A stretch of DNA of 64,000 nt, taken from the sequence record OP352608; one strand, written 5' to 3'. Of the stretch, positions 816 to 43,493 are shown one piece after another. The notes beneath the pieces are model-generated. The model was not told where the DNA came from, ran no database searches, and was given only the letters and a program-made list of their open reading frames with translations. The position numbers were made by a program, and so were the translations under genes. This DNA is from Escherichia phage vB_EcoM_SP13. Within the stretch, counting starts at the first letter, position 1. Each line of letters opens with the position of its first letter.

Positions 816-889
816 ATTACCTCCGGTTTTGAGTTAATATGATTATAACGCAGAGTCTCAGAAAGGCAAACTTTTTGTGAATTTTAATC

Positions 890-920
890 AAAAAAAATGG
901 CCAGAAAAAAATCTGGCCGA
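890..920 (-). terminator. stem-loop (GGCCAGA / TCTGGCC) with T-tract on minus strand
   Basis: 7-bp inverted repeat 899-905 / 912-918 flanked by A-run on plus strand (T-run on minus). Confidence 0.3.
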
Positions 921-994
921 AAGATCACCCTTTATCCACTACTAAGCTGGAATCATAATTTTACTTGATATAGCTTGTACAAGCAAACTATAAT

Positions 995-2455
995 ATGAAT
1001 AAAATATTAACACATAATTGGAAATTCATGTACCAGTTGAATCCTGCTTTAAAAGAAGTCTGGAAGACAAAAGCGCGATACAAAGTAATATACGGCGGTC
1101 GTGCATCTTCCAAATCGCACGATGCCGCTGGTTTTGCTATTTATTTGGCGGCAAACTTCAAATTAAAATTCCTTTGCGTTCGACAATTCCAGAACAAAAT
1201 TTCTGAATCTGTATATACTCTATTAAAAGACAAAATAGAGATTTCTGATTTCAAAGATGAGTTCAATTTATTAAAGAACTCTATTGAACATAAAAGAACT
1301 AAATCTGAATTTCTATTTTACGGTATCGCACGTAACGTTGATGAAATTAAATCAACAGAAGGTGTTGACGTCCTTTGGCTGGAAGAAGCGCACGCGCTTA
1401 CTGAAGAACAGTGGGACATTATTGAGCCGACAATCCGTAAAGAAGGGTCCGAAATATGGATCATCTTTAACCCCGATGAAGAGGCCGATTTTGTCTACCA
1501 AAACTTTGTTATGCGACCGCCGAAGAATGCCATTGTTAAAAAGATAAACTGGCAAGACAATCCATTTTTGTCGCAAACGATGCTGGACGTTATTGCAGGC
1601 ATGTACGAGCGCGACCCGAAAAAGGCAGAGCACGTTTATGGCGGCGTGCCGAAGACTGGCGGCGATAAATCTGTAATCAACCGCGCATTCGTTAAGGCCG
1701 CGCTTAATCTCCACAAACACCCTACGCTGGGATGGAGTTTGTCAGGGTCTAACCGTATAGGCTTTGACGTAGCGGACGATGGCGACGACCTTAACGCCAC
1801 TGCATTCGTTACAGGAAACGTATTGCGCGGCATCAAGACATGGGAAGGTCTGGAAGATGAATTGTTAAAATCGGCAAGCGGAGTTTGGAAAGATGCGCTT
1901 ACATTTGGCGCTTCTATAACTTATGACGCCATCGGTGTCGGCGCTTTTGCTGGTTCAAAATTTGATGAACTGAACGAGTATGCAATACATGAAAATCCAT
2001 CATTTCCAAGAATCGAATTTAATGCGTTCAATGCGCAAGGGTCTGTTGATGATCCTGATGACGTTTTTCTTGAATTACCACACGTTGAAATACTCAATAA
2101 AGACCATTTCGCAAACATAAAAGCGCAAAAGTGGACTGAAATTGCAGAGAGATTCAGAAAGACATACGAATATGCAACTGGGCAAGCCGTATATCCGACT
2201 GATGAGTTGATTTCAATCGACACCGATGGCATACCAGAACTTGGAATTCCAGCTTGGACTACTGAAGAGATTGAGACGTTTCTTTTTGAGATGTCAGCGC
2301 CGCGCAAAGATACGTCTGTTCTTGGCAAGTTCAAAGTTGAATCTAAAAAGGATATGGCAAAGCGTGGAGTCAAATCACCTAACAAAGCGGACGCGGCAAT
2401 CATGGCATTAATGAAACCAATCGTTGCAGCATCCGGCTTCTTCTCTAACCTTTAA
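995..2455 (+). CDS. terL: terminase large subunit
   Basis: N-terminal Walker A-like YGGRASSKS after LNPALKE, typical of phage large terminases; 486 aa; sits ahead of portal. Start could instead be ATG 1028 because a TTGATA-N18-TATAAT box abuts ATG 995. Confidence 0.8.
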   Translation: MNKILTHNWKFMYQLNPALKEVWKTKARYKVIYGGRASSKSHDAAGFAIYLAANFKLKFLCVRQFQNKISESVYTLLKDKIEISDFKDEFNLLKNSIEHKRTKSEFLFYGIARNVDEIKSTEGVDVLWLEEAHALTEEQWDIIEPTIRKEGSEIWIIFNPDEEADFVYQNFVMRPPKNAIVKKINWQDNPFLSQTMLDVIAGMYERDPKKAEHVYGGVPKTGGDKSVINRAFVKAALNLHKHPTLGWSLSGSNRIGFDVADDGDDLNATAFVTGNVLRGIKTWEGLEDELLKSASGVWKDALTFGASITYDAIGVGAFAGSKFDELNEYAIHENPSFPRIEFNAFNAQGSVDDPDDVFLELPHVEILNKDHFANIKAQKWTEIAERFRKTYEYATGQAVYPTDELISIDTDGIPELGIPAWTTEEIETFLFEMSAPRKDTSVLGKFKVESKKDMAKRGVKSPNKADAAIMALMKPIVAASGFFSNL

Positions 2456-2458
2456 CAA

Positions 2459-2698
2459 TCAAAGCATTCCGTGCTGAAGGTCTAGTTTTCTTGCAGCAAA
2501 TGACCTGGCACGGAATCGCTTACCCGCCCTTACTGCCTGCCGAATCTTCTTTTGCATACACTTACGGTCAAAATCGTTGCGGTCAACGGCTTCGAGTAAA
2601 TCCCGACGCAAAGCACCTAGTGTCGCCTTTTCGGATAATTCTACGCCCAGCGCGGCTGCAACGTCTTTCAAAACATCGAGTTCGGTTAACGTTCTCAT
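2459..2698 (-). CDS. hypothetical protein (basic, 79 aa)
   Basis: ORF convergent with terL; 4-bp ATGA overlap with upstream minus-strand gene. Confidence 0.4.
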   Translation of the reverse strand: MRTLTELDVLKDVAAALGVELSEKATLGALRRDLLEAVDRNDFDRKCMQKKIRQAVRAGKRFRARSFAARKLDLQHGML

Positions 2699-3111
2699 TT
2701 GATAATCCCCTTGATGTCTGATTCTGCCATAAAGATTGGAGTGCCGCCGCCAGGAACAATCGAGCGCGTTACTTTGTCGAACATATCGTTTTCTTCAACT
2801 TGAATACGATAAAATTTATTCTTGGATGAAGATGGGCACAATTCCATAAATTTACCAATGCCGCGAACGCATTCATCTTCAAAGTATACTGTTTCACCTT
2901 GAATGGATTCGATGTTTTCAACCGGATACACCTTGCGACCTAAAAGCCATTCATCCATGGTCGCCTGCAACACGCTTCTCGCATCCAAAATCCAAGGGTC
3001 AACTGTGGCACCTTCATATCGCGCAGCAGTGGCTTTTGCCAGCTCTTCATATTCGCATACGTTTACTACTTCGCCTTGATGAAGGACGACAAATACAATT
3101 GTTGTGCTCAT
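2695..3111 (-). CDS. hypothetical protein (138 aa)
   Basis: ORF with perfect AAGGAG Shine-Dalgarno 6 nt before ATG at 3111; opposite strand to flanking terL and portal. Confidence 0.5.
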   Translation of the reverse strand: MSTTIVFVVLHQGEVVNVCEYEELAKATAARYEGATVDPWILDARSVLQATMDEWLLGRKVYPVENIESIQGETVYFEDECVRGIGKFMELCPSSSKNKFYRIQVEENDMFDKVTRSIVPGGGTPIFMAESDIKGIIK

Positions 3112-3206
3112 TTCAATCTCCTTTCGTTTGGTTAACTAAAATATAACTCAAAATGATACAAAAGCAAAATATTTTATGAACTATTTATGATTACTATACA
3201 TATCAT

Positions 3207-3235
3207 TTGCTTACAAACACATGAATATTTATAAT
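3207..3235 (+). promoter_or_regulatory. sigma70-like promoter TTGCTT-N17-TATAAT
   Basis: -35 at 3207-3212, -10 at 3230-3235, in AT-rich gap upstream of portal. Confidence 0.45.
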
Positions 3236-3273
3236 ATAGATTGATTCCCTTTCACTGTCAGGTGGCGTTAACA

Positions 3274-5649
3274 ATGAAAATTCTTGGCATAAAACTCTGG
3301 GAGAAGACGCGACCAGAAGCCGAACCAGCGGAGATGCCGCCAGGCGACCCATTGGCACCGTTTGAACGCCTTGAAAGGCGCGGCAGCGGTCAACGCTGGG
3401 AAAAGACTGAAAGCAATCGACCGACCTTTAAAACGGTTGATGACTTCCCTTTATATGAGCCTGATATTAACGGGGACGGTGTTGCAATCATCAAAGGTCG
3501 CTCAGTAGATTCAGCAACCGTATCCAAAAAAGTTATGGATAATGCCTTAAAGAACATCAGTTCAGAAGGGCAGGTGAATCCATACACAGTGCCTATTCAG
3601 TTGCAAAACTGGTACTTATCGCAATCATTTATCGGATATCAAGCTTGCGCCATCATCGCGCAGCACTGGCTAGTGAACAAGGCTTGTTCCATGGTAGGCC
3701 GCGATGCGGTCCGTAAAGGCTGGGAAGTCAAATCCAGTTCTGAGTCGGAATTGTCAGTACAGGCCAGCGAACGCTTAAAGCAAATTGATAAAGAATTTAA
3801 CATCAAAGAGCACTTAGTTGAAGCCGAACGATTCAAGAATATTTTTGGCATCCGCGTCATCATATTTGATGTGCGCAGTGATGACCCAGAATATTATAGC
3901 AAACCTTTTAACATCGATGGTGTGACAAAAGGGTCTTATAAGGGAATCATTCAGGTTGACCCTTATTGGATGATGCCATTCTTGACGTCTGAAAACACTG
4001 CAGACCCTGCGTCACAGCATTTCTATGATCCAGAATACTGGGTGATCAGCGGACAGCGTTATCATCGCAGCCACCTAATCATCTTGCGCAACGATGAGCC
4101 AGCTGATATTCTCAAGCCGACTTATATCTACGGCGGCATTCCTCTGACTCAGCAGATTTATGAACGTATCTATGCCGCTGAACGTACCGCTAACGAAGCG
4201 CCATTGCTGGCGATGTCTAAGCGTACAACCACGCTTCGGACCGACGTTGACAAGGCGATTGCCAATGAGCGGTCGTTTGCCGAACGTCTGATGATGTGGA
4301 TTAAGTACCGCGACAACTATGCAGTCAAAGTGCTTGGTCAGAAAGAAGAGATGGACCAGTTCGACATCAACTTGTCAGACTTCGACAGCATCATCATGAA
4401 CCAGTACCAGCTGGTGGCCGCAATCGCAAAAGTTCCGTCGACAAAACTGTTAGGGACGTCACCTAAAGGCTTTAACGCCACTGGTGAGTTCGAAATGGTC
4501 AGCTATCACGAAGAATTGGAGACTTGTCAACAGCACGATTTGACGAAGATTCTTGACCGCCACTATAAAATCCTTTTGAAGTCTGAAGGCGTGGAAGTCG
4601 ACGTTAAAGTGGCATGGGAGCCAGTTGGTTCACTTACTGCTACTCAGCTTGCAGAGATTAACGACAAACGAGCGAATACTGGCAAGACTCTCATTGATGC
4701 TGGCGTAATCTCCCCTGATGAAGAGCGCGACCGCATCAAGGACGACAAAAACAGCGGCTACAACCGTTTGCCGGAAGATGCAGCAGAAGAAACCCCAGGG
4801 ATGTCTCCAGAGAATATGGCACTGCTTGGCAAGTCTGCTGGTGAAGTTCTGCAAGGCAAGGCCGATATTGAACAGGCCAAAGCTGATGTTGTCAAGATGG
4901 GCGGCCAGTTCTATAGCGAGACTGGTATTATGCCGGAAGGTGCCGCGCGTGGTGAGTTGGCGGAAAACCCTGACAGGGCACCAGTTGAGATTAACATGGA
5001 TGATACCGATGACGAATCAAGCCATCACGTTGATGTCCTAACGCAACTGAAAGAAGGTCTGGAGGGTATTGCTGACTATTACCTTAAAGAAGGTCAGGAC
5101 GTGGATTTTGACCCTCAAAAAGATGCAAGGTCGGTGCAACCGTCTACGCTTCCAAGCGTAAAAGGAAATGTCGTGAACTTGCGACACAATGTAGGGAAGA
5201 TGGATGCTGCATCGCTGCCTAAGATGAAGTTGCACGGGATGATTCTTGGTATTGAGAATCCTCGCAACAGCATTCGCAGGGGTAACAGCCTTGATGGTGA
5301 ATGGGCAGTTAAGATGCCGCACCATTACGGATTTATCAAAGGCACCAAGGGCGCTGATGGTGATGAAGTCGACTGCTTTGTTGGACCAAACATGAAGTCG
5401 CCTAAAGTATTCATCATTAACCAAAATGATAATTATTCTGGCGAATTTGATGAACACAAGTGTATGCTTGGATTTGATTCAGCAGAAGAAGCGAAAGAAG
5501 CTTATCAGGCGTCATTTGGTAACGGTTGGAACGGATTTGACTCAATCCACGAATTGGATGTAAACTCATTCAAGGAGTGGTTGAAGGGTGATTGCTCTCA
5601 AGCATATGGAGCACTCAACAATCCTACTAATTCACCGAAGCAAGGTTGA
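3274..5649 (+). CDS. portal protein (putative) with C-terminal inorganic-pyrophosphatase-like domain
   Basis: Large ORF directly after terL; AGGTGG RBS 8 nt before ATG 3274; C-terminus carries YGFIKGTKGADGDEVDC, which fits the family I PPase signature D-[SGDN]-D-[PE]-[LIVMF]-D-[LIVMGAC]. Confidence 0.55.
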   Translation: MKILGIKLWEKTRPEAEPAEMPPGDPLAPFERLERRGSGQRWEKTESNRPTFKTVDDFPLYEPDINGDGVAIIKGRSVDSATVSKKVMDNALKNISSEGQVNPYTVPIQLQNWYLSQSFIGYQACAIIAQHWLVNKACSMVGRDAVRKGWEVKSSSESELSVQASERLKQIDKEFNIKEHLVEAERFKNIFGIRVIIFDVRSDDPEYYSKPFNIDGVTKGSYKGIIQVDPYWMMPFLTSENTADPASQHFYDPEYWVISGQRYHRSHLIILRNDEPADILKPTYIYGGIPLTQQIYERIYAAERTANEAPLLAMSKRTTTLRTDVDKAIANERSFAERLMMWIKYRDNYAVKVLGQKEEMDQFDINLSDFDSIIMNQYQLVAAIAKVPSTKLLGTSPKGFNATGEFEMVSYHEELETCQQHDLTKILDRHYKILLKSEGVEVDVKVAWEPVGSLTATQLAEINDKRANTGKTLIDAGVISPDEERDRIKDDKNSGYNRLPEDAAEETPGMSPENMALLGKSAGEVLQGKADIEQAKADVVKMGGQFYSETGIMPEGAARGELAENPDRAPVEINMDDTDDESSHHVDVLTQLKEGLEGIADYYLKEGQDVDFDPQKDARSVQPSTLPSVKGNVVNLRHNVGKMDAASLPKMKLHGMILGIENPRNSIRRGNSLDGEWAVKMPHHYGFIKGTKGADGDEVDCFVGPNMKSPKVFIINQNDNYSGEFDEHKCMLGFDSAEEAKEAYQASFGNGWNGFDSIHELDVNSFKEWLKGDCSQAYGALNNPTNSPKQG

Positions 5650-5650
5650 T

Positions 5651-6502
5651 ATGGCTTTTAAAGCTTCGAAAAAACGTGAACGCCGCTCACCCGATAGAAT
5701 CGGGCGCGGCAGTCCGATAATCCCATCCAACGCAATCGCGATGGCCTATCGTCGTGAGATGAAAGGTCTTTGCTATGCGATGATTGACGACTATCAAGAA
5801 GGAATTGCTGAGTGGCTTGAAAAGAAGCAGGTGAAAAAATTCTTTGCGCAAGACTCTGCTGATTCAACTTTTCAAACCTTGATGAAGCGACTGCAACTGA
5901 AATGGGCAAAAGCTTTCGCCCGTGTCGGGTCAAAGATTGCCGCAGATTTCATCAAGTCAGTTGAAAAGGGTGCCACTTCTGCTACATTTGCAAGTCTTAA
6001 ATCTGCAGGAATAGAAGCGCCAAAAGCCACATATAATAAATTCGTTGAGAACACTCTTAAAACAAGCGAGACGTTCAACACGACTTTAGTGACTAAGGTT
6101 GGCGAGGATATTCACAACAGGGTGTACGAAGCGGTGATGCTTTCGCTGACTTCGCCAGACCCAGCGCAACAAGGCACGTCCGGTATTCAGGCGGCATTAA
6201 GGAATGTAAAACACTTCTCTGCAAAGCGCGTAGACCTTATTGCAAAAGACCAAACGAGCAAACTTTATTGCGTATTAAGTGATGAAAGGATGCGACAGAA
6301 TGGAGTCGAGGAATTTGAGTGGGCGCATTCAGGAGCAGGCAAAGAGCCGCGAATATCGCATGAGCATGTCGATGGAATGAGATTCAAGCTTGATGACAAA
6401 CGCTTATGGGAAGTAGGTGGAGAACTTAAGTTCAAAAAGGGTGACATCGGTCCTCCTGGATGGGCGATACACTGCAAGTGCAGGAAAATACCAATTATCT
6501 GA
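5651..6502 (+). CDS. head morphogenesis protein (MuF/SPP1 gp7-like, putative)
   Basis: Position immediately after portal, size about 280 aa; assignment mainly by synteny. Confidence 0.45.
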   Translation: MAFKASKKRERRSPDRIGRGSPIIPSNAIAMAYRREMKGLCYAMIDDYQEGIAEWLEKKQVKKFFAQDSADSTFQTLMKRLQLKWAKAFARVGSKIAADFIKSVEKGATSATFASLKSAGIEAPKATYNKFVENTLKTSETFNTTLVTKVGEDIHNRVYEAVMLSLTSPDPAQQGTSGIQAALRNVKHFSAKRVDLIAKDQTSKLYCVLSDERMRQNGVEEFEWAHSGAGKEPRISHEHVDGMRFKLDDKRLWEVGGELKFKKGDIGPPGWAIHCKCRKIPII

Positions 6503-7943: not shown

Positions 7944-7972
7944 TTGCCTAAGTTTTTTTCATTAGATATAAT
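7944..7972 (+). promoter_or_regulatory. sigma70-like promoter TTGCCT-N17-TATAAT
   Basis: -35 at 7944-7949, -10 at 7967-7972, followed by GAGGGTGG RBS and ATG 8002. Confidence 0.5.
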
Positions 7973-29552: not shown

Positions 29553-29580
29553 AAAAAGGCCCATATGGGCCTTTGTTTAT
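29553..29580. terminator. bidirectional rho-independent terminator
   Basis: Palindrome GGCCCATATGGGCC (29558-29571) flanked by A-run and T-run, between convergent genes. Confidence 0.65.
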
Positions 29581-29789
29581 TTTACGGCTTCAACCTGGAC
29601 GGGCGGCGCGGAACTTGTATCAATGTCTGGCAAGTCGAAGTAATACCCCGCCATGCCAATCACGCCAACAATCGCGGCCCGTGCCACCTTGTTGCTGATT
29701 GACTCCCCAATAAGCTTTACCAACAGGGACAAGATTTGAGACGTCAAAGCCTTTTTCAGCCTTTTGTTTTCTTCCAAATCTTTCTGCAT
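29577..29789 (-). CDS. small membrane protein (70 aa)
   Basis: GGGTGG RBS 5 nt before ATG 29789; C-terminal hydrophobic segment AAIVGVIGMAGYYF. Confidence 0.4.
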   Translation of the reverse strand: MQKDLEENKRLKKALTSQILSLLVKLIGESISNKVARAAIVGVIGMAGYYFDLPDIDTSSAPPVQVEAVK

Positions 29790-29803
29790 AACTACCACCC
29801 ATG

Positions 29804-30346
29804 TCAACGCACTTCCTGTGTCTTAACATTACCTGAAGCATCTCTTAAGGGCAGTGGATAGTAGGCCATTTGGTAGTCTGATACGCCTTCAACATGATAA
29901 AACACGATTACGTCTTTGCTGTTGATGAGCATGTTAACGACATCTGATTTATCTTCTGGAGTGAGTATGAGTGCGCCGCCTGTCCTGCTGTCTACTGCAA
30001 CAGGGTATGTCTTATCGACAAGGCCGCTGTCCAATGTATTATACCTGACAACGATTTCAGGGGCATCAACTTTTGCAATTGACATTCCGAACACAAACGA
30101 CACGACTTGGCGACCGCGATCATTCATTACGCACATCTTTTCCTTATCAAACCTTTCCTTTATCACATCATATTTGTTCCAACAAAATTCGAACGATTGG
30201 CCGTTGTTAAAATATCTCGTTAATACTTTTGCATTGCTGTTTGGCGGCGTAAACATACTTTCAGCCGCTGCACTTTTGGTGAAGAACAAAACTGTCAGCA
30301 TAGCCATGATGATGATCAAAACAATCTTTAAGTTTTTCGATTTCAT
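29804..30346 (-). CDS. secreted protein of unknown function
   Basis: N-terminal signal-peptide-like sequence MKSKNLKIVLIIIMAMLTVLFFTKSAAAE; own TTTACT-N16-TATACT promoter upstream. Confidence 0.5.
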   Translation of the reverse strand: MKSKNLKIVLIIIMAMLTVLFFTKSAAAESMFTPPNSNAKVLTRYFNNGQSFEFCWNKYDVIKERFDKEKMCVMNDRGRQVVSFVFGMSIAKVDAPEIVVRYNTLDSGLVDKTYPVAVDSRTGGALILTPEDKSDVVNMLINSKDVIVFYHVEGVSDYQMAYYPLPLRDASGNVKTQEVR

Positions 30347-30423
30347 TATAATTCACCTTTTGATTACGAATATTAATAGTATAGGCCGAAGGTTTTGAAA
30401 GTAAATAAGGCGAAAGGTAAATA

Positions 30424-30448
30424 AAAGAAAAGCCGGAGATTTCCGGCT
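30424..30448. terminator. rho-independent terminator (AGCCGGA / TCCGGCT)
   Basis: 7-bp stem, 4-nt loop, flanked by A-run and T-run. Confidence 0.55.
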
Positions 30449-30522
30449 TTATGTATACACTGTATATTAAATTCTATAAAACGACGAGATAGATTATCCG
30501 CACCAATTATTTATCTAGTGTC

Positions 30523-31500
30523 TTAGAAATACTCCATATCGGTAATATCACGGAAGCATTTATACAAAGCAGAGCGCGGCACGTCAACGATGCCAAAGTT
30601 AAAGAATTTATACGTAAGGTATTTATCGCGATAGTTTTCGCGATTCTCCCAAAGCATTTTACGCTCTGCCATAGGCATTGAACCAGCGGAGACGCGGAAA
30701 GGAATCATTTCACCTTTCTCATCCACATATTTTGGATTGACGACTACGAATGAGCCAAGGTATCCTTTCGCAACTAAACCTTCAGCCTCTTTTGAACGCT
30801 TGGTGCGACCCAATTCGTCAATGAATGCTTCGTTGTTGTTCTCCATCATCTCAACGAAGTCTATGATCAATCCTTCTTCATCGGTCCACGGCTTGTCCTT
30901 CCACACATCACGTGACTTCGGCGTCGCGCGGCCATGCTTGTATTTGCCCGTCCAAGACTTGCCATACAAGCCTTCATATCCAAGCTGGTCCGCTTCGATT
31001 TGCATCGCCGCGTACTGTTCCATATTTTCGATGTTTCGATATTCGAGAGCGCGAAGGAATGGGCGTCGACCATGGTTGATGAGATGTTGATTAACTTCAG
31101 CAACTCTAGCTCGATAGTTCGCATAACGCTTTTCAAAAGGCAAATCAGGGTCGCTGAAGTCATCAAACACCCACCATGTAAAGTTAGTGATTGCATCAGT
31201 ATTCATGCACGCAGTATAGGCCTGTTGCATGACGTTCTTGTCATTTGGATTGCCGTCGATTAGCTCTCCATCAAGTCCGTGAATTAGTTCACCCAAAAAG
31301 AGGAATTCTTTTTTGATTTGAACGTTTCTCAGCGCCATGCCGGACGTGCCCATTGGCAAGTTGTCATACGCCATTGCGCGTATTCCATCGACCTTGAATG
31401 ACAATCCGCAAGGCAGCGGCACGTCTTCGCCGCGCTCGATTATTTGCTTACGCTGGCAACCCTTCATTGGTTTTAATGCTTTGATTTCTCCTGCCATCAC
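30523..31500 (-). CDS. ATP-dependent DNA ligase
   Basis: Adenylation motif I FKVDGIR near N-terminus; 325 aa consistent with minimal phage ligases; AAGGAG RBS. Confidence 0.6.
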   Translation of the reverse strand: MMAGEIKALKPMKGCQRKQIIERGEDVPLPCGLSFKVDGIRAMAYDNLPMGTSGMALRNVQIKKEFLFLGELIHGLDGELIDGNPNDKNVMQQAYTACMNTDAITNFTWWVFDDFSDPDLPFEKRYANYRARVAEVNQHLINHGRRPFLRALEYRNIENMEQYAAMQIEADQLGYEGLYGKSWTGKYKHGRATPKSRDVWKDKPWTDEEGLIIDFVEMMENNNEAFIDELGRTKRSKEAEGLVAKGYLGSFVVVNPKYVDEKGEMIPFRVSAGSMPMAERKMLWENRENYRDKYLTYKFFNFGIVDVPRSALYKCFRDITDMEYF

Positions 31501-32090
31501 TCAAACTCCTTATTCATCACTTGTTCCAGCGCATAGGCGTAAGCCTGATCAGTAGATTTGATGAACGTTCCGTTGTACATGACACCTTTGCGGTCCTTGA
31601 TGTCTTCGTAGGCCGCTTGCGCACAGTCGGATAAGCGAAGGCCATAATCATGAGCTACGCCGGAAAGGTAATCGACTGCGGCCATGATGGTGACGTCAAT
31701 ATCCATGGTCTGATTCTTAGCAATAGCATCACCAAGCCGTCCAAGGGTCTTTGCCAGGCGAAGGATGAATGAATGAGGGTGAGCGCCTTTATCAGCACAA
31801 CCGCCGCCATTAATGTTTTCGATTTCAGTACCGTTTTGCGCCGCCAGGATGGTCAACACAACAAGACAATCGCCAATGTCGTCCTTGATTGCAGCTTGCA
31901 AGTCACAGATGGCCTGCTCTGTATATCCAATTTCAGGGTCGAAGAACACAAGGTCATGGAGTTGATCAACGTGGTCGGTTAACTCCCCAAACTCGCTGAT
32001 AAGCTTCGGGTATTGGTCCTTAAGGTCGCAACCTTGGATGATGTTACGGTCAGAAGCCCACTGGCGAATGTTTGCATAAATCTGTTTCAT
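31497..32090 (-). CDS. MazG-like nucleotide pyrophosphohydrolase
   Basis: EFGEL ... DIGDCLVVLTILA motif pattern typical of all-alpha NTP pyrophosphatases. Confidence 0.5.
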   Translation of the reverse strand: MKQIYANIRQWASDRNIIQGCDLKDQYPKLISEFGELTDHVDQLHDLVFFDPEIGYTEQAICDLQAAIKDDIGDCLVVLTILAAQNGTEIENINGGGCADKGAHPHSFILRLAKTLGRLGDAIAKNQTMDIDVTIMAAVDYLSGVAHDYGLRLSDCAQAAYEDIKDRKGVMYNGTFIKSTDQAYAYALEQVMNKEFE

Positions 32091-32606
32091 TTATTTTTCC
32101 TTTGATGCATTGAATTGATCGATTTTTATTTTAGCCTGATTATAAGTATCAATCAAGCTATTAACTTTCTCTTTTAATCGATTTGTTTCTGCGGCGAACT
32201 GAACAAGAAATCTGACATCCTCTTCTGATAGTCCACAGTTTCCTTCTGGGATAGAGAGGCGTCCAGTGGTCGCAGAGTCGGGCACACTCCTGAGTAACTC
32301 ACGGGAGCAGCTGAGTTGCTCGCGCAACTTGACATTCCCAGACTTGTAACGAGCAATAGTGTCATCAGCAACCAGTTGCGCTTCCTGGCGACCCTTCTCA
32401 TATGCCGATGCCGATTCAACCTGTAAAGTTGCAATTTGCTCTTCGAGTGCATTTATCTTGTCCTTACGCTCATTAAGCGATGTCAGATATTGATTATCCT
32501 TGGCCAGTGATGCGTTGGTTTGCTGCAGGTCTTCAACGTATGATCCAGCGGCAAACGCGCCAACAAGGGCCAGAATCTTCAGGAGCGGTACAATTCTTTC
32601 TATCAT
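32091..32606 (-). CDS. Rz-like i-spanin (putative)
   Basis: N-terminal hydrophobic anchor followed by long coiled-coil-like region; contains an embedded out-of-frame lipoprotein-like ORF. Confidence 0.4.
   Translation of the reverse strand: MIERIVPLLKILALVGAFAAGSYVEDLQQTNASLAKDNQYLTSLNERKDKINALEEQIATLQVESASAYEKGRQEAQLVADDTIARYKSGNVKLREQLSCSRELLRSVPDSATTGRLSIPEGNCGLSEEDVRFLVQFAAETNRLKEKVNSLIDTYNQAKIKIDQFNASKEK
32174..32365 (-). CDS. Rz1-like o-spanin embedded in alternative frame (putative)
   Basis: 63 aa from internal Met: MTLLLVTSLGMSSC (signal plus lipobox-like Cys), Pro-containing mature part; entirely inside 32091-32606 in another frame. Confidence 0.35.
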   Translation of the reverse strand: MTLLLVTSLGMSSCASNSAAPVSYSGVCPTLRPLDASLSQKETVDYQKRMSDFLFSSPQKQID

Positions 32607-32663
32607 GATGCACCAGATAAATAAAAGGCCGCCAATCGGCAGCCTTGTTGATTTGATTGTCGA

Positions 32664-33524
32664 TTAAAACTCTTCTGCGTCGGTCGGAGTTTCATTGACA
32701 GGGCCAGCGGCACCGCTTGCTTCTTCCTGCTTGCTGCGGTCAATGTTAACGTTGCCGCCAACTACGTCGTTGTGGAATGCCTTGGCGACTTCGTACAGAC
32801 CTTTGTCCTGCACCAGACCTTCCAGCTCAAACTTCAGAACTGACCATGTATTGCCGTCTTTGGACTGGGATGCAGTGCCCATGCGAACGATGTTCATAAA
32901 GGTCGGCGGCGTTTTCAGACCCTGCGGAGTCTGAACTTTCTTCTGCTGCAGAGCTGTCATCAGCATGCGAGACGGCTTGATCATGGAAGAAGTCAGAGAC
33001 AGCATTGCGCTACCAAATTCACCAGTTTCTTCGTTCAACAGAATTACGAAGTGGTTACGTGTATCTGCGTAGTAAGGCGATTTCTTCTCGTGCACCTTGC
33101 CGTTTTCGTCCGGCACAAACACTTTACCGTTGATCTCAACAGCGCGCCCTGCCGCGACTTCTGCATCAACGTGCTCTTTGGTGAATTCACCTTTAAAGCC
33201 TTTATCGTCGGACTCGCGACCGCCCCAAAGGATGAAGGTGCGTTTGAATGCACAAGGGATGATCTGCACGCCTTTCTTGCCGTCATACAACTCACCAGTG
33301 ACGGTGTTGTAAAGCATGCCAGCTTTTGCGCCAGGAACGTGTTTCGGATCATCTTCGTCGACCATAGGTGACATCTTCTGCAGGACGACGATAAAAGGAA
33401 TGGCATACGCATCGGCATCGGCACCTTCAAAACCAGCGCCAAAATCGGTCATGTCGACAAAATCGGCCATAGCGGACATCTGGGTGTTTTTCACTGCAAC
33501 TTCGGTGGTTTCTTTCTTAGACAT
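32664..33524 (-). CDS. single-stranded DNA-binding protein-like (putative)
   Basis: Acidic C-terminal tail ending in aromatic residue (ETPTDAEEF) as in phage SSBs; sits in replication module. Confidence 0.4.
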   Translation of the reverse strand: MSKKETTEVAVKNTQMSAMADFVDMTDFGAGFEGADADAYAIPFIVVLQKMSPMVDEDDPKHVPGAKAGMLYNTVTGELYDGKKGVQIIPCAFKRTFILWGGRESDDKGFKGEFTKEHVDAEVAAGRAVEINGKVFVPDENGKVHEKKSPYYADTRNHFVILLNEETGEFGSAMLSLTSSMIKPSRMLMTALQQKKVQTPQGLKTPPTFMNIVRMGTASQSKDGNTWSVLKFELEGLVQDKGLYEVAKAFHNDVVGGNVNIDRSKQEEASGAAGPVNETPTDAEEF

Positions 33525-33583
33525 TTGATATTTTCCTATAGTATCAAGTTTCGTGGCAACCTGATTTCAAGATAAAGGTTAAA

Positions 33584-34141
33584 TTACTTTTTGCTTTTAG
33601 GCAAGGTTATTTTAGCTTCTTTGTATTCAAAAACGCTAATATCTTCACTAACTGGATTGCCTGCTTCCAGCTGTTCTTTTACAAATGACTTCAGTGTAGC
33701 AGAATGAACGCCTTGTTTCAATGTGGCTTCAACGCCATCTTCACGCAGCGCGGCAACAATCTCTTGCGCCTGTTCGATTTCTTCGCGACCGAACTCAGCC
33801 GTGACGCTGGACTTGATCAAGCCGCCGTAACCGTTGTTGACAAGCCAATCGAAAACTTTTAATTCGTTTTCTTTCTTGATTGAAGCATTCACCTTGGACT
33901 CGACCTTGATTTTGGTCTTGTCCTCAAGCTTGATTTCAGACACACCAAGCTCATCCATTACGCCAGGAAGCAAAACAGTTTTGATTTCACTGATGCGCTG
34001 CTTTTGCATATCAGCTTCATCTTCAAGCTCTGTCAAAGCTTCTTGACGTTCTGCAAGTTCAGATACTAAGCGCGCAAGGCGCTCTTGAATGCTCTCAGGA
34101 GCGACCTGCGGCAAATCATCTTCCCAATTAATATTGCTCAT
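33584..34141 (-). CDS. hypothetical protein (coiled-coil N-terminus)
   Basis: 185-aa ORF in replication module. Confidence 0.4.
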   Translation of the reverse strand: MSNINWEDDLPQVAPESIQERLARLVSELAERQEALTELEDEADMQKQRISEIKTVLLPGVMDELGVSEIKLEDKTKIKVESKVNASIKKENELKVFDWLVNNGYGGLIKSSVTAEFGREEIEQAQEIVAALREDGVEATLKQGVHSATLKSFVKEQLEAGNPVSEDISVFEYKEAKITLPKSKK

Positions 34142-34401
34142 ATTTTACCTTCTTGCATTAGCCCTTCAACACGGGTCATTTGATAACGTTCAGGTTTCCA
34201 AGCCGCCAAAGCCTTCTCAGCGCCTTTTAAGGTTTTATATGCCTTGATGCCAGGCACAATAACGGTATTCACCCCAGCGCCGTTGCCATAATCAAACTCT
34301 TTAACAACGCGGAACATCCCGTCAATTTCTTTGACCAAAAGACGTTTGAAAGCGATTGCGCCAGTAGCTTCATTTTTGTAACGTTCAAGGATGCGTACCA
34401 T
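34138..34401 (-). CDS. hypothetical protein
   Basis: 87-aa ORF overlapping neighbour by 4 bp. Confidence 0.4.
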   Translation of the reverse strand: MVRILERYKNEATGAIAFKRLLVKEIDGMFRVVKEFDYGNGAGVNTVIVPGIKAYKTLKGAEKALAAWKPERYQMTRVEGLMQEGKI

Positions 34402-34475
34402 TTTGTGTTCCTCTGTTTCGTTTCGATGAAGTAATTATGACTCATCTTCCATGACAAGTCAAATTATTTTTGATA

Positions 34476-35999
34476 TTAATTCATCTTTTTGCCGTCGAGG
34501 ATGTGATCAGCAAGCATAGATTTCATGCTCAGTGAACGCTGAATTTCTTCATCGATGGTATCAACACCAATAAAATCAACATACAACACACTTGATTTGG
34601 TGCCGATGCGGTGATTTCGGTCTTCGGATTGCTTGCGCAGCTCGTTGTCATAGTTGCAAGAATAATAGATTGCCAAGTCGGCGGCGGTAAGCGTGATTCC
34701 GATGCCTGCCGCTGCAGCGTGGCAAACCAAAACTTGTGTTCCACCGTTCTCGACTGTGTTTTTCTGGAAGTCATCAATCAAGAACTCTCGCTGCTCTTTC
34801 GACGTTTCACCGTTGTATACACCAGTGACCACGCCTTCAGACTCAAGCCAATCCTTAATCTGGTTCATCTCTTCCTTAAAGATGGCCCACACAATGAATT
34901 TGCGCTCTGGGTCGTCTTCCAGCACCCCTTCCACATAGTCCTTAAAGGCCGTGAATCGTGGGTTGTCTTCCATGTAGACCATCTCATCATACACCTTAAC
35001 AAAGCCTGATGTCACCTGCTTCATCTTGGTGCGAGATGCGATCATCTCAAACTTAACGTTTTCTTCTTCGCCTTTGTACTCCATCAGATAGTTGTACTCA
35101 TTCTTGAGTTCATCATATACATCGCGCTGCTTAGGCGACAACTCGAAGTCGATAAACTTGTACACCTTCTCTGGAAGGTCCGGCAAGTATTCCGCTTTTG
35201 TCGCGCGGAAATAGTGCGGTTCCATCAGCCGGATAAGCTTGTCAAGGTTCTTGTACATCGGTCGGCCAAACTGGTCTTTGCGAGGCACTTGCGGAATGCC
35301 ATAACCGTTGCCGCCGATTTTCTTGAGAATGGCCTGCATCTCTGGGTCGTGCGCTTCAAGCAGGACTGTAAATTCAGAGTTGAATGCACGGAACGATTTG
35401 GTGCCAAGCAAGCCAGCTTCAAGGAAGTGATATTGCATGTAAATATCAGCAGGCGAGCGCGGCAGCGGCGTACCGGAAAGGATTCGACGGGCCTTTGCCA
35501 GCCGTCCCAATTCCACAACCTTGATGGAGCGTTTGGCTGTGTTATTTTTGATACGCGTCGATTCATCAATGATCATCAAACAGCGGTATTTCTTCAAGAC
35601 CGACTCAATGTGTTGATAACCGACTGGTGTGTTGACGGTATCAATGTTGAATGAGAAGATGCGCGCAGGCACTTCGCCTTCAGGGTAGTGATCAGCAAAC
35701 ATCTTCTCCCAAATCGCCTTGCCCTTTTTAGTCTTCATCTTGTCATTGCCGCGCCAGTAATGCCCAATCCACTTGATGGAAAGGTGTTCTGGTGCTTCAC
35801 GACGAATCCAGTTTGAGTGCACACCGTTAGGAGCGATGACAACCATGGCATCAAATGCGCCAGCGGCGAAGTGTTTTTCAAACTCTGCCAAAGCAGTCCA
35901 GGTTTTGCCAAGACCCTGCTCCATAAAATAAGCAAAGTATTTTCTGCGGCCTGCTTTATCAAGCGCCAATAATTGGTGGCGCATTCCTTGTGTTTTCAT
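34476..35999 (-). CDS. SNF2-family helicase
   Basis: Walker A GLGKT, DExx box MIIDESTRIKN, helicase C-terminal motifs. Confidence 0.7.
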   Translation of the reverse strand: MKTQGMRHQLLALDKAGRRKYFAYFMEQGLGKTWTALAEFEKHFAAGAFDAMVVIAPNGVHSNWIRREAPEHLSIKWIGHYWRGNDKMKTKKGKAIWEKMFADHYPEGEVPARIFSFNIDTVNTPVGYQHIESVLKKYRCLMIIDESTRIKNNTAKRSIKVVELGRLAKARRILSGTPLPRSPADIYMQYHFLEAGLLGTKSFRAFNSEFTVLLEAHDPEMQAILKKIGGNGYGIPQVPRKDQFGRPMYKNLDKLIRLMEPHYFRATKAEYLPDLPEKVYKFIDFELSPKQRDVYDELKNEYNYLMEYKGEEENVKFEMIASRTKMKQVTSGFVKVYDEMVYMEDNPRFTAFKDYVEGVLEDDPERKFIVWAIFKEEMNQIKDWLESEGVVTGVYNGETSKEQREFLIDDFQKNTVENGGTQVLVCHAAAAGIGITLTAADLAIYYSCNYDNELRKQSEDRNHRIGTKSSVLYVDFIGVDTIDEEIQRSLSMKSMLADHILDGKKMN

Positions 36000-36418
36000 G
36001 ACAATTCCTCTAAATACTTGATGATGTGATGAATAGTTCCCTTCACGATTATCTCACGTTGAACGTCTGCAGTATTATAACGCTTTAATTCAATAGAAGG
36101 GTGGACTAAATAAAACATCTTCTCAGAATCAACCTTAAGCAGAACAAATGATGGGTATTTCCAATCATTCCACGAAGAAAGAAAGCTGCATTGGCCTTTC
36201 TCAAATGCATTTCTGAAAGGTGCAGTGGTGGCCCTTGCAGGCCACGATTCAAAGAACTTCATTTCAAGCCAAAAGCCGCGCCCTTTCCGGTTGGTGCCGA
36301 TTACGTCCGGCACGCCATCACCAGTCATCGACTCGATTCGTTGAAGCTTCAATACCGATTCTGAATGCTTCTTCAAAGGCACGAATATGTATTTCTGCTC
36401 ACGGTTATTTGTTGCCAT
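35996..36418 (-). CDS. VRR-NUC domain nuclease
   Basis: GDGVPDVIG ... FWLEMK pattern of PD-(D/E)xK VRR-NUC nucleases; adjacent to SNF2 helicase as is common. Confidence 0.55.
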   Translation of the reverse strand: MATNNREQKYIFVPLKKHSESVLKLQRIESMTGDGVPDVIGTNRKGRGFWLEMKFFESWPARATTAPFRNAFEKGQCSFLSSWNDWKYPSFVLLKVDSEKMFYLVHPSIELKRYNTADVQREIIVKGTIHHIIKYLEELS

Positions 36419-39302
36419 CTGGATACACCTGTTTGATCACGTCAACGATGAACATGTCAATGCCTTCAAGCTTACGACCTTTCATCAGGAAGAATGCGCC
36501 GTTCCCGACGTTTTCAGCGATGTACTTCCCGTACTTCTGGAATTTCTCTGGACGAATCCTGAAGCGCATTGGCGAGTCGGTCGAGTCATCCTTGCACATA
36601 AGGTCGATGAACTGAGTCTCAAGCTTGTTCCCGTACTGGTCAAACTCTGCGTAGCGGCCATCAGCTTGAAGACCCTTTTTAAGCTTGCCGTGCTTTGTAT
36701 AGATGCCGCGCTCAAGTCGTTTACGGATGCGTGTTGCTTCGTTCTCGTCCGCAAGCACTTTCTTTGTCAACTTGCCGATTACTATTGCGCGCTCGTCATC
36801 ACCGACTTCCTTCATCTGGCGTATTGAAGCGCCGGACGTCACGCCAATCAGATAAGGGTCATTATATGCCCATCCGAACTTTGTGTGCATCTCTGTCAGG
36901 TCGCCATATTTAACTTCAGCATTGGCCAATGCATCCTTCTGCTTTTGCGTTAAGGTTCCGGCTTCACGCGCTTCGATATATTTCATCGCCTTCACCATGC
37001 CGTACCCTTTCGCGTTCATGATGCCGCCGATTAGCTTTCCGTTCGCGATGGTCCAGTTCATTGAAGAGTGATCAGGGTCGATTGGCACATAATCCACGCC
37101 TTCCTTCGCAAGTTCACGTAATATCGCAATCGTCTGGTCTTCGTCCTTAGCAGCGCGTAAGCAGGCTGCGGCAAATTCCAACGGGTAGTGTCGCTTAAGC
37201 CACAAGGTCCAGTAGGTCACGACCGCGTATGACACGGAGTGTGACTTGTTAAAGCCCCATGACCCGAACGTGGCCATCGCTTGCCAAAGCTTTCTTGCAT
37301 CCGCTTCCGGTACGCCATTATTTATTGCGCCTGCAACAAAGTCCTCTCCAAGCTTGTTAAAGTATTCTTCACCCTTACGGCCTGACATTGCCTTACGTAC
37401 AGCGGATGTTTTCGCCCAGTCGAATGAACCAATCTCTTTAACCACGGCCATGATTTGCTCTTGGTAAAGAAACACGCCGTAAGTCTCTTTTAGGTACGGC
37501 TCAATCTGCGGCACGTCGTACTCAATCGGCGCACGCCCTGCCGCGCGTTCAATGTATTTCTGGGCCATACCGGATGACAACGGGCCAGGTCGACCCAAAG
37601 CCGTCAGGTTGTCGATTTTGTTAAAGTTATCGACGTGCACAAAGTTTGTTACTGAGCGTACAGCGTCGCCTTCAAACTGGAAGATGCCTGACATCTTGTT
37701 TTCGTTAAGAATGTCAAGGACGCTTTGATCATCAAGCTTGATGCCGTAGAGCGTTTCAGCATCAATAACGCCTGTATCAGAAATAATTCCGAGAGTACGA
37801 AGGCCCAACGCATCAAGCTTCAAAAGGTTAAGGTATTCGCTGTCAGGCTTATCAATTTGTGCAATCCCTTCTGCAGTTACAGTACAGTAATCAGAGATTG
37901 GGTCATTACACACAATGATTCCCGCTGCGTGAACACCTGTGTGGGACGGGTGAATCTCAAGGTCGCCCATGCAACGCGCGGCATCAGGATATTTGGCCAC
38001 GAACTCTTGACCCGTGGTTGTTGTTGCAAAGGTATCCTCCAGGCCGTGACCATAACGGGCGTCACCGGATGAGTATTCAAGCAGTGCGTTTTTAATGTTG
38101 GCCGTTTCGTGGTATCCAATGTTGAACTTCTTACCAACCTGCGCCATTACTGAGTTGGCCTTAAGCGTGTTGATGTTGCCAAGCTTTGCAACGTTCATTT
38201 CGCCGTATTTCTCTTTAAGGTAATCAAACACCATGTAGCGTTTGGTATCTTCAAAGTCGATGTCGATGTCAGGAAGGTCGGCGCGGCTTACGTCGATGAA
38301 TCGGGCAAACAGCAGCTTATACGGGATTGGGTCCACTTCCGTGATGCCAAGGCAATAGCAAACAAGTGAACCAGCCGATGAGCCGCGAGCAGGACCGACG
38401 AGCATTTTTGTTTTTGCGAATCGTACAAGGTCCGCTACTACCAGAAAGTATGAGTCGAAATCTTTCAGCTGAATCTGGTGAATTTCTTCGTTGAAGCGGT
38501 CCTCATATTCCTGAGTCCATTCTTTGATGTGACCTGCTTTGAGACGGTACTCCATCCCCTCACGCGCAAGCTTTACCATATCACCAGCAAGGTGAATAAT
38601 CGGTGCCTTGCGTAATTTCAGGTCAAGTCCGACTATGCCGTTTGCTATGTCAACAGCATTGGCCGTTGCCTGATTCAGCTCATCTTCCGTCAAGATGCCT
38701 TTAAGCTGTTTGCGCAAGTCTTCCGCGTCAACGATGCAGTGCGGCTTGACCGTGTCGCGCACTTCCCAAGCATAAGCAAAGTCAACGTGCTCAGGTGAAG
38801 GCATGTGGTTGTATCCGGTTAAAACCAGCGGCCTTCCGTTGCTGCGGTGAGCCAACACCTGGCGCTTAGCCAAAAGGAACGATGATGGGTTGACGTCTAT
38901 ATAATCGTAGTCCTCTGGCCGCAGCAACTCCACGGCACCGCCACAGAATTTAACGACGCCATCGAGCGCACCGAACTCTGCACGGGTAAGCCCGCCGCGC
39001 TGCGTTGAAAGTGTTGTAGCGTTGTAAAAAGATTTTAAGTCAAGGGCCAATATCCAAGCCTTCGGTTTGAATCCCTTTTTCGGGTCCGCATCAGGGTCGA
39101 TGATTGGAATCTCCATCCCAAACATAGGCTTAATATCATTTTTCTGGCATTCCTTTTCCCAGCGAACGTGACCCCATGTATTGTTATCAACTAATGCCGC
39201 GACTTCGCAGCCCAACTCTTTGAGCCGTGCTATAATTTCAGGATGCCGTCCATAAACTTCTTTGAACGTGTAACCGCTGCGAACTCTCAATTGTGGAAAC
39301 AT
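36405..39302 (-). CDS. dnaE: DNA polymerase III alpha subunit-like replicative polymerase
   Basis: 965 aa; N-terminal PHP-like region and ADLPDIDIDFE motif characteristic of Pol III alpha. Confidence 0.7.
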   Translation of the reverse strand: MFPQLRVRSGYTFKEVYGRHPEIIARLKELGCEVAALVDNNTWGHVRWEKECQKNDIKPMFGMEIPIIDPDADPKKGFKPKAWILALDLKSFYNATTLSTQRGGLTRAEFGALDGVVKFCGGAVELLRPEDYDYIDVNPSSFLLAKRQVLAHRSNGRPLVLTGYNHMPSPEHVDFAYAWEVRDTVKPHCIVDAEDLRKQLKGILTEDELNQATANAVDIANGIVGLDLKLRKAPIIHLAGDMVKLAREGMEYRLKAGHIKEWTQEYEDRFNEEIHQIQLKDFDSYFLVVADLVRFAKTKMLVGPARGSSAGSLVCYCLGITEVDPIPYKLLFARFIDVSRADLPDIDIDFEDTKRYMVFDYLKEKYGEMNVAKLGNINTLKANSVMAQVGKKFNIGYHETANIKNALLEYSSGDARYGHGLEDTFATTTTGQEFVAKYPDAARCMGDLEIHPSHTGVHAAGIIVCNDPISDYCTVTAEGIAQIDKPDSEYLNLLKLDALGLRTLGIISDTGVIDAETLYGIKLDDQSVLDILNENKMSGIFQFEGDAVRSVTNFVHVDNFNKIDNLTALGRPGPLSSGMAQKYIERAAGRAPIEYDVPQIEPYLKETYGVFLYQEQIMAVVKEIGSFDWAKTSAVRKAMSGRKGEEYFNKLGEDFVAGAINNGVPEADARKLWQAMATFGSWGFNKSHSVSYAVVTYWTLWLKRHYPLEFAAACLRAAKDEDQTIAILRELAKEGVDYVPIDPDHSSMNWTIANGKLIGGIMNAKGYGMVKAMKYIEAREAGTLTQKQKDALANAEVKYGDLTEMHTKFGWAYNDPYLIGVTSGASIRQMKEVGDDERAIVIGKLTKKVLADENEATRIRKRLERGIYTKHGKLKKGLQADGRYAEFDQYGNKLETQFIDLMCKDDSTDSPMRFRIRPEKFQKYGKYIAENVGNGAFFLMKGRKLEGIDMFIVDVIKQVYPDGNK

Positions 39303-39844
39303 TATTTACTCCAGATGTCATATACGCCAATTTGTTGGCAGACTTTGTGCAGTAATATTACGTCGTCTAATGCACGGTGCTTCTGTTCATATTTTCCGAA
39401 ATATAATTCATACAACTCTTGAAGCTTAACTCTTCGGCCAAAAATAGGCAAGGTTTGCTCAACTGTACATATGTTTATTTCTGGAAAATTAACATCATCA
39501 AGCGTAAGTCCTTCGCGCTGTAGTGCATAATCAAGAATGTTTTTATCGAACGCATGGTTGTGCGCGATAGTTGCATCAGTCTTCTTGAAGATTTCTTTTA
39601 GCTGCGGGACGAAATTGATGAACGGTGGATTGCACTCAAGGTCTTCATTTGTTAATCCGGTAATCTTTGTGATGATTTCTTCGATCACAATTTCAGGATT
39701 AATTATGAATTCAAAAGTTTCAAGAATCTCTTTGCCGTCTGTCAACAGACCTGCAAATTCAATAGGGCGCGGCTGCATCCCAAGCGGCGCTTTCGGGTGC
39801 ACTGTCAATCCGGTTGTTTCGAAGTCATAAGGGAGAAATAACAC
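39302..39844 (-). CDS. DnaQ-like 3'-5' exonuclease
   Basis: DEDDh motifs: DFETTG, HNHAFD, HRALDD. Confidence 0.7.
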   Translation of the reverse strand: MLFLPYDFETTGLTVHPKAPLGMQPRPIEFAGLLTDGKEILETFEFIINPEIVIEEIITKITGLTNEDLECNPPFINFVPQLKEIFKKTDATIAHNHAFDKNILDYALQREGLTLDDVNFPEINICTVEQTLPIFGRRVKLQELYELYFGKYEQKHRALDDVILLHKVCQQIGVYDIWSK

Positions 39845-39898
39845 ATTAGCCTCCTACAAAAAGGCCGCCCATTAGGACGGCCACAGATTCACGATTCG

Positions 39899-40450
39899 TT
39901 ATACAGTGTACGGAGTACCGTCTTGATTCAAGCGCACGATAAACTTCAAATCAACGCCGATGATTTCACGCGTATCAAAGATCACATAGTTGTAACGACG
40001 TTGACCAGCAATGTTCGGGTTGGTATGAGAGTCAGTTACAACTTCCTGTGCAACCTGAATACCTTCTTCTTTAAAGAACTTACGCCATTCAGCAAGTTCA
40101 GCGGCAGTCACGTGCATGCCAAGGTGGCTGACCTGATTGTCATGCGCATCGATATATTCGATGTTTTCGTTAATCCAGTTGCAGCCCATTGTGTAGTCAA
40201 GGATTTCAAGCTCAAGAGGCTTACCAGCGCCGCCATCAGTACCGTTGCCAGCCTGATAGTTGAAGCGCAAGTCAGCTTCATTGGTGCAATCGTCGCGACG
40301 ACCTTTAAAGTCATCAGCTTCAAATACGCGACCAGTAGCAACAACATGATCATGGAACCATTCTGTCAGGCCGATTTTAGCCAAGAAATCCTGTGCGCGC
40401 TGAGCATCTGGAATTGACAGGGCGATTTGTTCAATTTTAAAATGTGGCAT
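39899..40450 (-). CDS. VOC (glyoxalase/bleomycin-resistance-like) family protein
   Basis: Two beta-alpha-beta-like modules (KIEQIALSIPDAQRAQDFL; HLGMHVTAAELAEWRKFF) reminiscent of VOC fold; motif-level only. Confidence 0.35.
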   Translation of the reverse strand: MPHFKIEQIALSIPDAQRAQDFLAKIGLTEWFHDHVVATGRVFEADDFKGRRDDCTNEADLRFNYQAGNGTDGGAGKPLELEILDYTMGCNWINENIEYIDAHDNQVSHLGMHVTAAELAEWRKFFKEEGIQVAQEVVTDSHTNPNIAGQRRYNYVIFDTREIIGVDLKFIVRLNQDGTPYTV

Positions 40451-40546
40451 TTTGTTTCCTTAATTAAATATTATTGATTAATTACTGCGTTGTCTTCGTC
40501 CTGTTTCTTTTCAGGAGCGGGTGTGACAACTTCAAGTGTTCGTGAT

Positions 40547-41230: not shown

Positions 41231-41295
41231 TTATTTATCCTTTTTGGACTTCGTTTCGATGAGGTAAATATAACTCATCGAAACGAACAAGTAAA

Positions 41296-42968: not shown

Positions 42969-42981
42969 TTTAATTATCCTA

Positions 42982-43428
42982 TTAACGGTAGTTAACTAGT
43001 TGCTGATCACCAGAGAAGGTGCAATGATAAACGAATTGTGCGTTATAAAGCAACTGAAAACTTTTCTTTGGTTCATTATTAGAACTCATTGATGTAAAGA
43101 TTTCTGCACCAGAACGGTTTTCACCAATCAGGTTGATAAAGCCGCCAGTTGAACGAGGCTGAACGAAAGTGAAACGTTGCATCCACGGAGTGCGGTTGGC
43201 ACCTTTCCCTGTGAATCCTTGAATCTGAATATTCAGGCCTTCTTGCTCGTTCACACCGATGTAAGTGGTAATTGTTGCGCCAGTCGTTGCTGCAGTCTTG
43301 CCGTCCATCGCTTCGCAATCGTAAACAGCGATTGAATCGGAAGTACGGACAGCGGCTTCAGTCGCTTCCATATACATGGTTCCGAGAATAGCAGTTGCGG
43401 CAAGCGCGATTCCAGTGATTCGTTTCAT
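42982..43428 (-). CDS. secreted protein of unknown function
   Basis: Signal-peptide-like N-terminus MKRITGIALAATAILGTMYMEATEA. Confidence 0.45.
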   Translation of the reverse strand: MKRITGIALAATAILGTMYMEATEAAVRTSDSIAVYDCEAMDGKTAATTGATITTYIGVNEQEGLNIQIQGFTGKGANRTPWMQRFTFVQPRSTGGFINLIGENRSGAEIFTSMSSNNEPKKSFQLLYNAQFVYHCTFSGDQQLVNYR

Positions 43429-43493
43429 TTTCGTTTCCTCTATGAGTTCTGCTTCAATGATTAAAGTATACGCCCATTGAAGCAGAAAGCAAA

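Follow-up and report, generated by a model that had tools for sequence, protein, structure and literature searches.

Two overlapping minus-strand genes located between terL and the portal gene of Escherichia phage vB_EcoM_SP13, hereafter orfA and orfB, are probably the smallest remaining form of an accessory ("early") block that was ancestrally present, on the opposite strand, in Pbunavirus-like myoviruses, and probably encode non-structural accessory proteins, a reading to which we give a probability of roughly 0.6. In Wifcevirus, in the lineage of the metagenomic phage L005, in Kyle-like phages, in L013-L015 and in Pbunavirus, this block begins, on its promoter side, with orfA. In the enterobacterial branch, the older gene order is A, a lipoprotein trypsin-like protease, B and further genes including one for a DUF2786 protein.

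The window, i.e. the whole stretch of 64,000 nucleotides that was analysed (OP352608), is 100% identical over positions 900-5700 to Escherichia phage F13 (OP745617.1, Wifcevirus), and the label F13 is used below for this locus. No new kind of system is demonstrated here: orfA belongs to an existing PHROG and both genes were already present in GenBank records, where they are annotated as hypothetical proteins. The location of all features is given in Table 1.

Layout, conservation and control signals of the pair

The coordinates and the overlap originally predicted for the pair proved exact: the plus-strand tcat at 2695-2698 corresponds to ATGA on the minus strand, with the TGA of orfA overlapping the ATG of orfB. 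The AAGGAG ribosome-binding site announced for orfA was found as well, and a second site, AAGGGG, precedes orfB. The ATGA overlap and this internal site suggest that translation of the two genes is coupled. On one side, orfB converges on terL, the two stop codons being separated by 3 nt (2455-2459); on the other, orfA diverges from portal. Both genes are real, under purifying selection and core to Wifcevirus. They were found in 28/28 Wifcevirus records with 93-100% amino-acid identity and, in six Wifcevirus genomes, dN/dS was 0.076 for orfA and 0.052 for orfB (dS of about 0.23-0.27) as compared to 0.012-0.014 for terL and portal, which puts orfA about 5-fold above portal. Their GC contents of 43.4% and 49.6% are close to the mean of the window (46.1%, sd 4-5%), a composition typical for the genome. 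In L006 (6001-6471), a Wifcevirus contig obtained from public sequencing data, a 1-nt deletion shifts the frame of orfA after ca. residue 97 and leaves orfB intact, which may reflect an assembly error or a natural knock-out.

Table 1. Location and content of features at the terL-portal locus of the window and of related phages
Feature	Sequence	Position	Strand	Description
Intrinsic terminator upstream of terL	Window	899..918	-	GGCCAGA-TTTTTT-TCTGGCC then T8; strong, unidirectional; annotated in WFC
terL	Window	1028..2455	+	Terminase_3, E 3e-37
orfB	Window	2459..2698	-	79 aa; ORF call, dN/dS 0.052, AlphaFold2 pLDDT 85
orfA	Window	2695..3111	-	138 aa; PHROG 5124 member
Ribosome-binding site of orfB	Window	2707..2712	-	AAGGGG; inside orfA 3' end; annotated in phage Mansfield
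Ribosome-binding site of orfA	Window	3118..3123	-	AAGGAG; 6-nt spacer to ATG at 3111; annotated in phage Mansfield
Divergent control region	Window	3112..3273	.	162 bp; 26.5% GC vs 46.1% for the window
Best candidate promoter of orfA-orfB	Window	3140..3167	-	TTGCTT (3167-3162), 16 nt, TATATT (3145-3140); predicted start near 3132
Candidate promoter of the divergent portal/structural operon	Window	3207..3235	+	TTGCTT-17-TATAAT
Second promoter-like site facing orfA	Window	3233..3261	-	CTGACA-17-TATATT, 10/12
Portal	Window	3274..5649	+	Phage_portal_3, E 4.5e-88
Terminator at the place and in the orientation of that at 899..918	L005	9601-9618		GGCCAGG-GCTT-CCTGGCC
Trypsin_2 protease	L005	6411-7019		
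Trypsin_2 protease	L004	8414-8959		
Trypsin_2 protease	L024	1857-2417		
terL/block convergence	L005	8061-8072		
terL/block convergence	L004	10333-10336		
terL/block convergence	L023	1452-1455		
Block	Myosmarvirus (MyoSmar, TropicalSun)			8 genes, including a T4 Imm-like gene and a DUF2786 protein
Block	Pantoea phage Kyle			5 genes (KYLE_28 to KYLE_24)
Block	L005			4 genes; 72.5-kb phage, terL 90% identical to that of F13
Block	L023, L024			Partial
Block	L013-L015			Present
Block	Pbunavirus (14-1, antinowhere; about 300 records)			In 14-1, 14 annotated genes labelled ORF05-ORF16

An own promoter had been proposed for the pair in an AT-rich gap at 3112-3240. The gap is AT-rich and contains a conserved sigma-70-like candidate, but it ends at 3273, portal starting at ATG 3274 and terL at ATG 1028 according to the annotations. 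Only 3 of its 162 columns vary within Wifcevirus, as compared to 29-34% of the third codon positions in the flanking genes, and the region can be aligned across F13, L005, Kyle and L024. A stock sigma-70 scan showed no enrichment over shuffles and the promoter calls therefore rest on conservation across lineages. The best candidate for orfA-orfB is conserved in these four sequences (in L024 as TTGACT-16-TATACT); it fails the stock scan because its -35 hexamer matches at 3/6 positions only. For the second site facing orfA, the alignment indicated that the -10 hexamer is not conserved in Kyle or L024. Both hexamers of the portal-facing candidate are conserved in the four lineages, and this candidate stands back-to-back with that of orfA, the two being of one class. 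A promoter-like TTGCYT-N16/17-TATAAT pattern recurs in the window at 842-869 (-), 3207-3235 (+), 7944-7972 (+) and, with TATATT, 3140-3167 (-), where it precedes the leftward genes below 842, portal, the gene starting at 7996 and orfA, respectively.

Neither a terminator scan nor folding of the sequence downstream of orfB (z -0.23) detected a terminator between orfB and terL. The minus-strand terminator upstream of terL is the probable 3' end of a predicted leftward transcript. It can be reached only by transcripts antisense to terL, and L005 has a counterpart (Table 1). These data do not support the proposal that the pair was acquired as a moron. Like phage morons, it is oriented opposite to its late neighbours and has a promoter candidate of its own; it differs from them in being present in all Wifcevirus records, in having no terminator of its own and in showing no compositional anomaly.

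Several other observations were made in the window. A near-consensus promoter, TTGATA-18-TATAAT (11/12), ends at 994 close to the start of terL (965-1030). The latter is placed at ATG 1028 in the F13, WFC and Mansfield annotations and at 995 in that of vB_Eco4M-7; ATG 1028 (475 aa) is likelier than 995 (486 aa), because 995 would precede the predicted transcription start. Positions 600-842 are also annotated differently, with a 43-aa plus-strand ORF in F13 (714-842) and a 71-aa minus-strand ORF in WFC (600-815). At its C-terminus, the portal bears an InPase domain resembling inorganic pyrophosphatase (PF18823, E 4e-46; residues 660-782 of the ORF called from 3241). L005 and L006 display this fusion as well, and in MyoSmar the orthologue is labelled "phosphatase family protein". 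Finally, a crude ORF map displays a leftward block of ca. 21 genes (29577-47132, -) and a rightward run of ca. 31 mostly small ORFs (48809-60935, +), possibly the principal early region of this phage.

The terL-portal block in related phages

The original prediction took terL and portal to be normally adjacent and the pair to be an insert wedged into a hotspot. The relatives examined comprised Pbunavirus, Kylevirus, Myosmarvirus and metagenomic phages or contigs (L005, L013-L015, L023, L024). In every one of them an opposite-strand block of 2-14 genes lies between terL and portal, and the two genes are adjacent in none; the suggested comparison with relatives lacking the insert thus found no such relative in this set. 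The gene content of the region does fluctuate between genera, and to this extent the hotspot idea holds, but the opposite-strand block is homologous in every relative and does not correspond to an insertion.

The orfA family profile matches the first gene beside portal in all lineages except Myosmarvirus (E 1e-28 to 1e-50), including ORF16 of Pbunavirus 14-1 (E 8e-30). The family is very small, with 15 representatives at E < 1e-3 among 1.84 billion proteins, and 15/15 of the collected members match phrog_5124, PHROG 5124 being a family without assigned function. Homologues of orfB are confined to the enterobacterial branch (Wifcevirus, L005, L006, Kyle, L023 and L024); profile searches revealed none in Pbunavirus, and orfA thus occurs without orfB in about 300 Pbunavirus records and in L013-L015. 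In Myosmarvirus, which shares terL and portal, profile searches detected a homologue of neither gene. At the protein level, orfA displays 56% identity with a 137-aa protein of L005 and 26% with KYLE_28, and orfB 67% with a 79-aa protein of L005 and 33% with KYLE_26; the portal of F13 is 66% identical to that of Kyle, against 26% for orfA.

The block is best documented in Pbunavirus, where the literature refers to it as "the early genome region" and where it encodes gp12, which binds the RNA polymerase alpha subunit, and gp11, the YfiN-binding YIP peptide. In 14-1, this region (ORF05-ORF16, between terL as ORF04 and portal as ORF17) resembles the F13 pair in its position, in being on the opposite strand and divergent from portal, and in being non-structural. 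Its ORF16, the orfA homologue, is likewise the first gene beside portal, and a sigma-70 promoter facing portal is annotated in the divergent region, equivalent to that of F13. The two differ in size, as F13 retains 2 block genes versus 14 annotated in 14-1, and in content, since the F13 block has no gp12 RNA polymerase binder, no gp11/YIP and no DUF2786 protein, and since orfB has no Pbunavirus homologue. They also differ at the terL end, where F13 has no terminator. At that end, the last block gene overlaps the 3' end of terL by 4-12 nt in L005, Kyle and L023 (Table 1), again with no terminator; an annotated bidirectional terminator separates terL from the block in MyoSmar, and a 36-nt gap does so in 14-1.

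In Kyle, L005 and L024, the order and orientation of A and B and the promoter region are as in F13. These blocks differ from that of Wifcevirus by a gene encoding a Trypsin_2 serine protease between A and B, with all genes overlapping or abutting, and by a DUF2786/DUF7168 gene after B. The protease has a lipoprotein signal peptide (LAGC lipobox) and an intact His/Asp/Ser pattern, and would be an envelope-targeted enzyme encoded inside a phage accessory block. Both the protease and DUF2786 genes are missing from Wifcevirus, and their loss there is the parsimonious reading because L005, the closest outgroup, has the A-protease-B order. In L005, the two protease junctions share a similar context of ribosome-binding site and start codon (GGATT..AAATG), and a deletion between these contexts by microhomology would yield exactly the junction seen in F13. 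Given the A-protease-B order in Kyle-like phages and in the closest outgroup, the ATGA overlap of Wifcevirus is probably secondary, and the junction has the look of a scar left by a clean deletion.

Protein features and expression

Scans of both proteins against Pfam, PHROGs, NCBIfam and PADLOC returned a single match above threshold, phrog_5124 for orfA. No family of defence systems was matched in PADLOC-DB by either protein at E values up to 1, and profile searches of the PDB detected no relatives of orfA or orfB. The profile and structure searches that had been proposed as a check thus assigned orfA to a family, and pointed to no toxin, antitoxin or defence family. In the AlphaFold2 model of orfA (pLDDT 85), a small beta-beta-alpha-beta unit at the N-terminus precedes an SH3/Sm/Tudor-like barrel at the C-terminus; a KOW-like G-[DE]-x-V-x-F...R-G-x-G pattern may be present, although no Pfam match backs it. 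The protein is acidic (pI 4.7, net charge -8), as are all family members (pI 4.5-5.1), which makes protein binding a more plausible function than DNA binding. In the orfB model, a short helix and a loop are followed by a long C-terminal helix, forming a helical hairpin; the first 44 residues are acidic and the last 35 have a net charge of +10.8. Its N-terminus may resemble a HeH/SAP/Rho_N motif, again without support from Pfam.

Three further assignments were considered and set aside. The weak match of orfB to phrog_2130 (E 0.0035) corresponds to none of the nine 14-1 block proteins scanned. For orfA, Foldseek against BFVD returned its own family and matches to T4-type "transcriptional regulator"/MotB entries that are too weak to be relied on (E at least 0.08); for orfB, Foldseek against the PDB returned nothing. 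Finally, neither protein matched a solved small terminase (TerS) in the PDB, including that of E217 (7UXE), and orfB is missing from Pbunavirus. In E217, a related phage, TerS maps about 58 kb from terL, which places the small terminase outside the block; the TerS of F13 was not located (two ORFs tried).

Proteomic data are available for two Wifceviruses. Mass spectrometry found 33 proteins of vB_Eco4M-7 and 28 of ECML-117 (Necel et al. 2020). The portal and a 7.8-kDa protein are listed, and gp34 (orfB) and gp35 (orfA) of vB_Eco4M-7 are not; the ECML-117 equivalents, upstream of portal PI34_gp34, are likewise unlisted. This absence of detection in virion or lysate material suggests, and does not prove, that orfA and orfB are non-virion proteins, and neither emerges as the structural component that would have contradicted the original prediction. 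In a 2024 study, gp35 of vB_Eco4M-7 ("138 aa, unknown") was tagged with HiBiT and the tagged phage was equally viable (336 vs 332 plaques for the untagged phage). From the published mean differences to gp27, gp35-HiBiT gave a higher signal than the untagged phage in three strains, the excess being about 3.1e6, 3.8e5 and 2.4e6 RLU; read out at 2 h, the signal was above that of the tagged portal in one strain. The orfA orthologue is thus translated during infection.

Proposed role and alternative readings

Under the reading favoured here, host RNA polymerase would transcribe the pair leftward from TTGCTT-N16-TATATT in the 162-bp control region, and orfA and orfB would be translated as a coupled pair. 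As no terminator follows orfB, the transcript would run antisense through terL to 918-899. Both products would be cytoplasmic and non-structural, with an accessory or host-takeover function: as judged from the models, acidic orfA may be a protein-binding module built on the SH3/Sm-like barrel, and orfB may bind nucleic acids via its arginine/lysine-rich C-terminal helix.

A narrower form of the accessory-gene reading would have orfA (as an acidic immediate-early protein), orfB or both counteract a host immunity system such as restriction-modification. The Imm-like superinfection immunity gene of the Myosmarvirus block is consistent with such a role, as is the faster evolution of both proteins relative to structural genes. 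We nevertheless regard it as rather unlikely: neither protein resembles a known anti-defence protein or has a PADLOC, Pfam or PDB match, the net charge of orfA is far from that of DNA mimics such as Ocr, and conservation across phages of Pseudomonas and Escherichia points to a target that these hosts share rather than to a strain-specific defence.

It is also conceivable, though unlikely, that the main role of the locus is exerted in cis, leftward antisense transcription damping or timing terL. The 3-nt spacing of the terL and orfB stop codons with no terminator, the overlap of the last block gene with terL in L005, Kyle and L023, and the presence in F13 and L005 of a minus-strand terminator that only antisense-terL transcripts can reach would all fit this proposal, which is compatible with the accessory-block reading. 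Against it stand the annotated bidirectional terminator of MyoSmar and the 36-nt gap of 14-1, and the strong purifying selection at the protein level implies that orfA and orfB themselves matter.

A non-virion morphogenesis or packaging helper, with orfA tied functionally to portal or terminase, appears quite improbable. An assembly role would explain why orfA is always beside portal, an adjacency fixed in five lineages while other block genes turn over; the orfA promoter candidate is of the same class as that of portal, and the HiBiT signal after 2 h is within the range of some structural proteins. Against this, orfA was undetected in virions and is unmentioned among E217 virion gene products, it is missing from Myosmarvirus despite the shared terL and portal, and it diverges far faster than portal, as indicated by the identities to Kyle and the dN/dS values given above. 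Moreover, TerS of the related E217 lies far from terL, and neither protein matches a solved TerS.

Finally, a type II toxin-antitoxin operon or other defence cassette acquired as a moron, as originally proposed, is very improbable: the pair does resemble such operons in consisting of two small, same-strand, ATGA-overlapping genes with an acidic first and a basic second product, an own ribosome-binding site and a promoter candidate, but its partners are neither strictly co-occurring (A without B in Pbunavirus and L013-L015) nor always adjacent (the protease in three lineages), no toxin, antitoxin or defence model of Pfam, NCBIfam, PADLOC or the PDB was matched, the models show an SH3-like barrel for A and a helical hairpin for B, the pair has a typical composition and belongs to the core genes of a virulent genus, a C-terminal tag on A is tolerated, and a toxicity screen of 38 early-region ORFans from three Pbunaviruses, for which inclusion of the orfA homologue is not stated, gave phenotypes only for gp12 and gp11/YIP.

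Some of these elements might be combined, and we offer the combination as an unlikely, speculative extension: orfA would be a supergroup-wide immediate-early factor whose target is a host component shared by Pseudomonas and enterobacteria (e.g. transcription, termination or RNA machinery via the KOW/Sm-like barrel), the Wifcevirus block would have been pared down to A and the basic B, and its transcription would at the same time restrain terL in antisense. If true, a takeover module reduced in this way might be linked to the very short infection cycle that has been reported, or to the insensitivity of Wifceviruses to restriction.

Overall, the accessory-block reading implies that the ancestral layout of a large phage group, which includes therapy phages (Pseudomonas PB1-like), has an opposite-strand block between terL and portal, and that the pair is not a hotspot insert. 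Within this block, orfA (PHROG 5124) is the one gene that keeps the promoter-proximal place in all lineages examined except Myosmarvirus, and Wifcevirus has the smallest natural version, with two genes. An in-vitro genome assembly system has been published for vB_Eco4M-7 (PMC11074155) and a defence-phenotyping panel exists; together with this smallest block, they make the function of the orfA family, and a possible antisense control of terL, directly testable.
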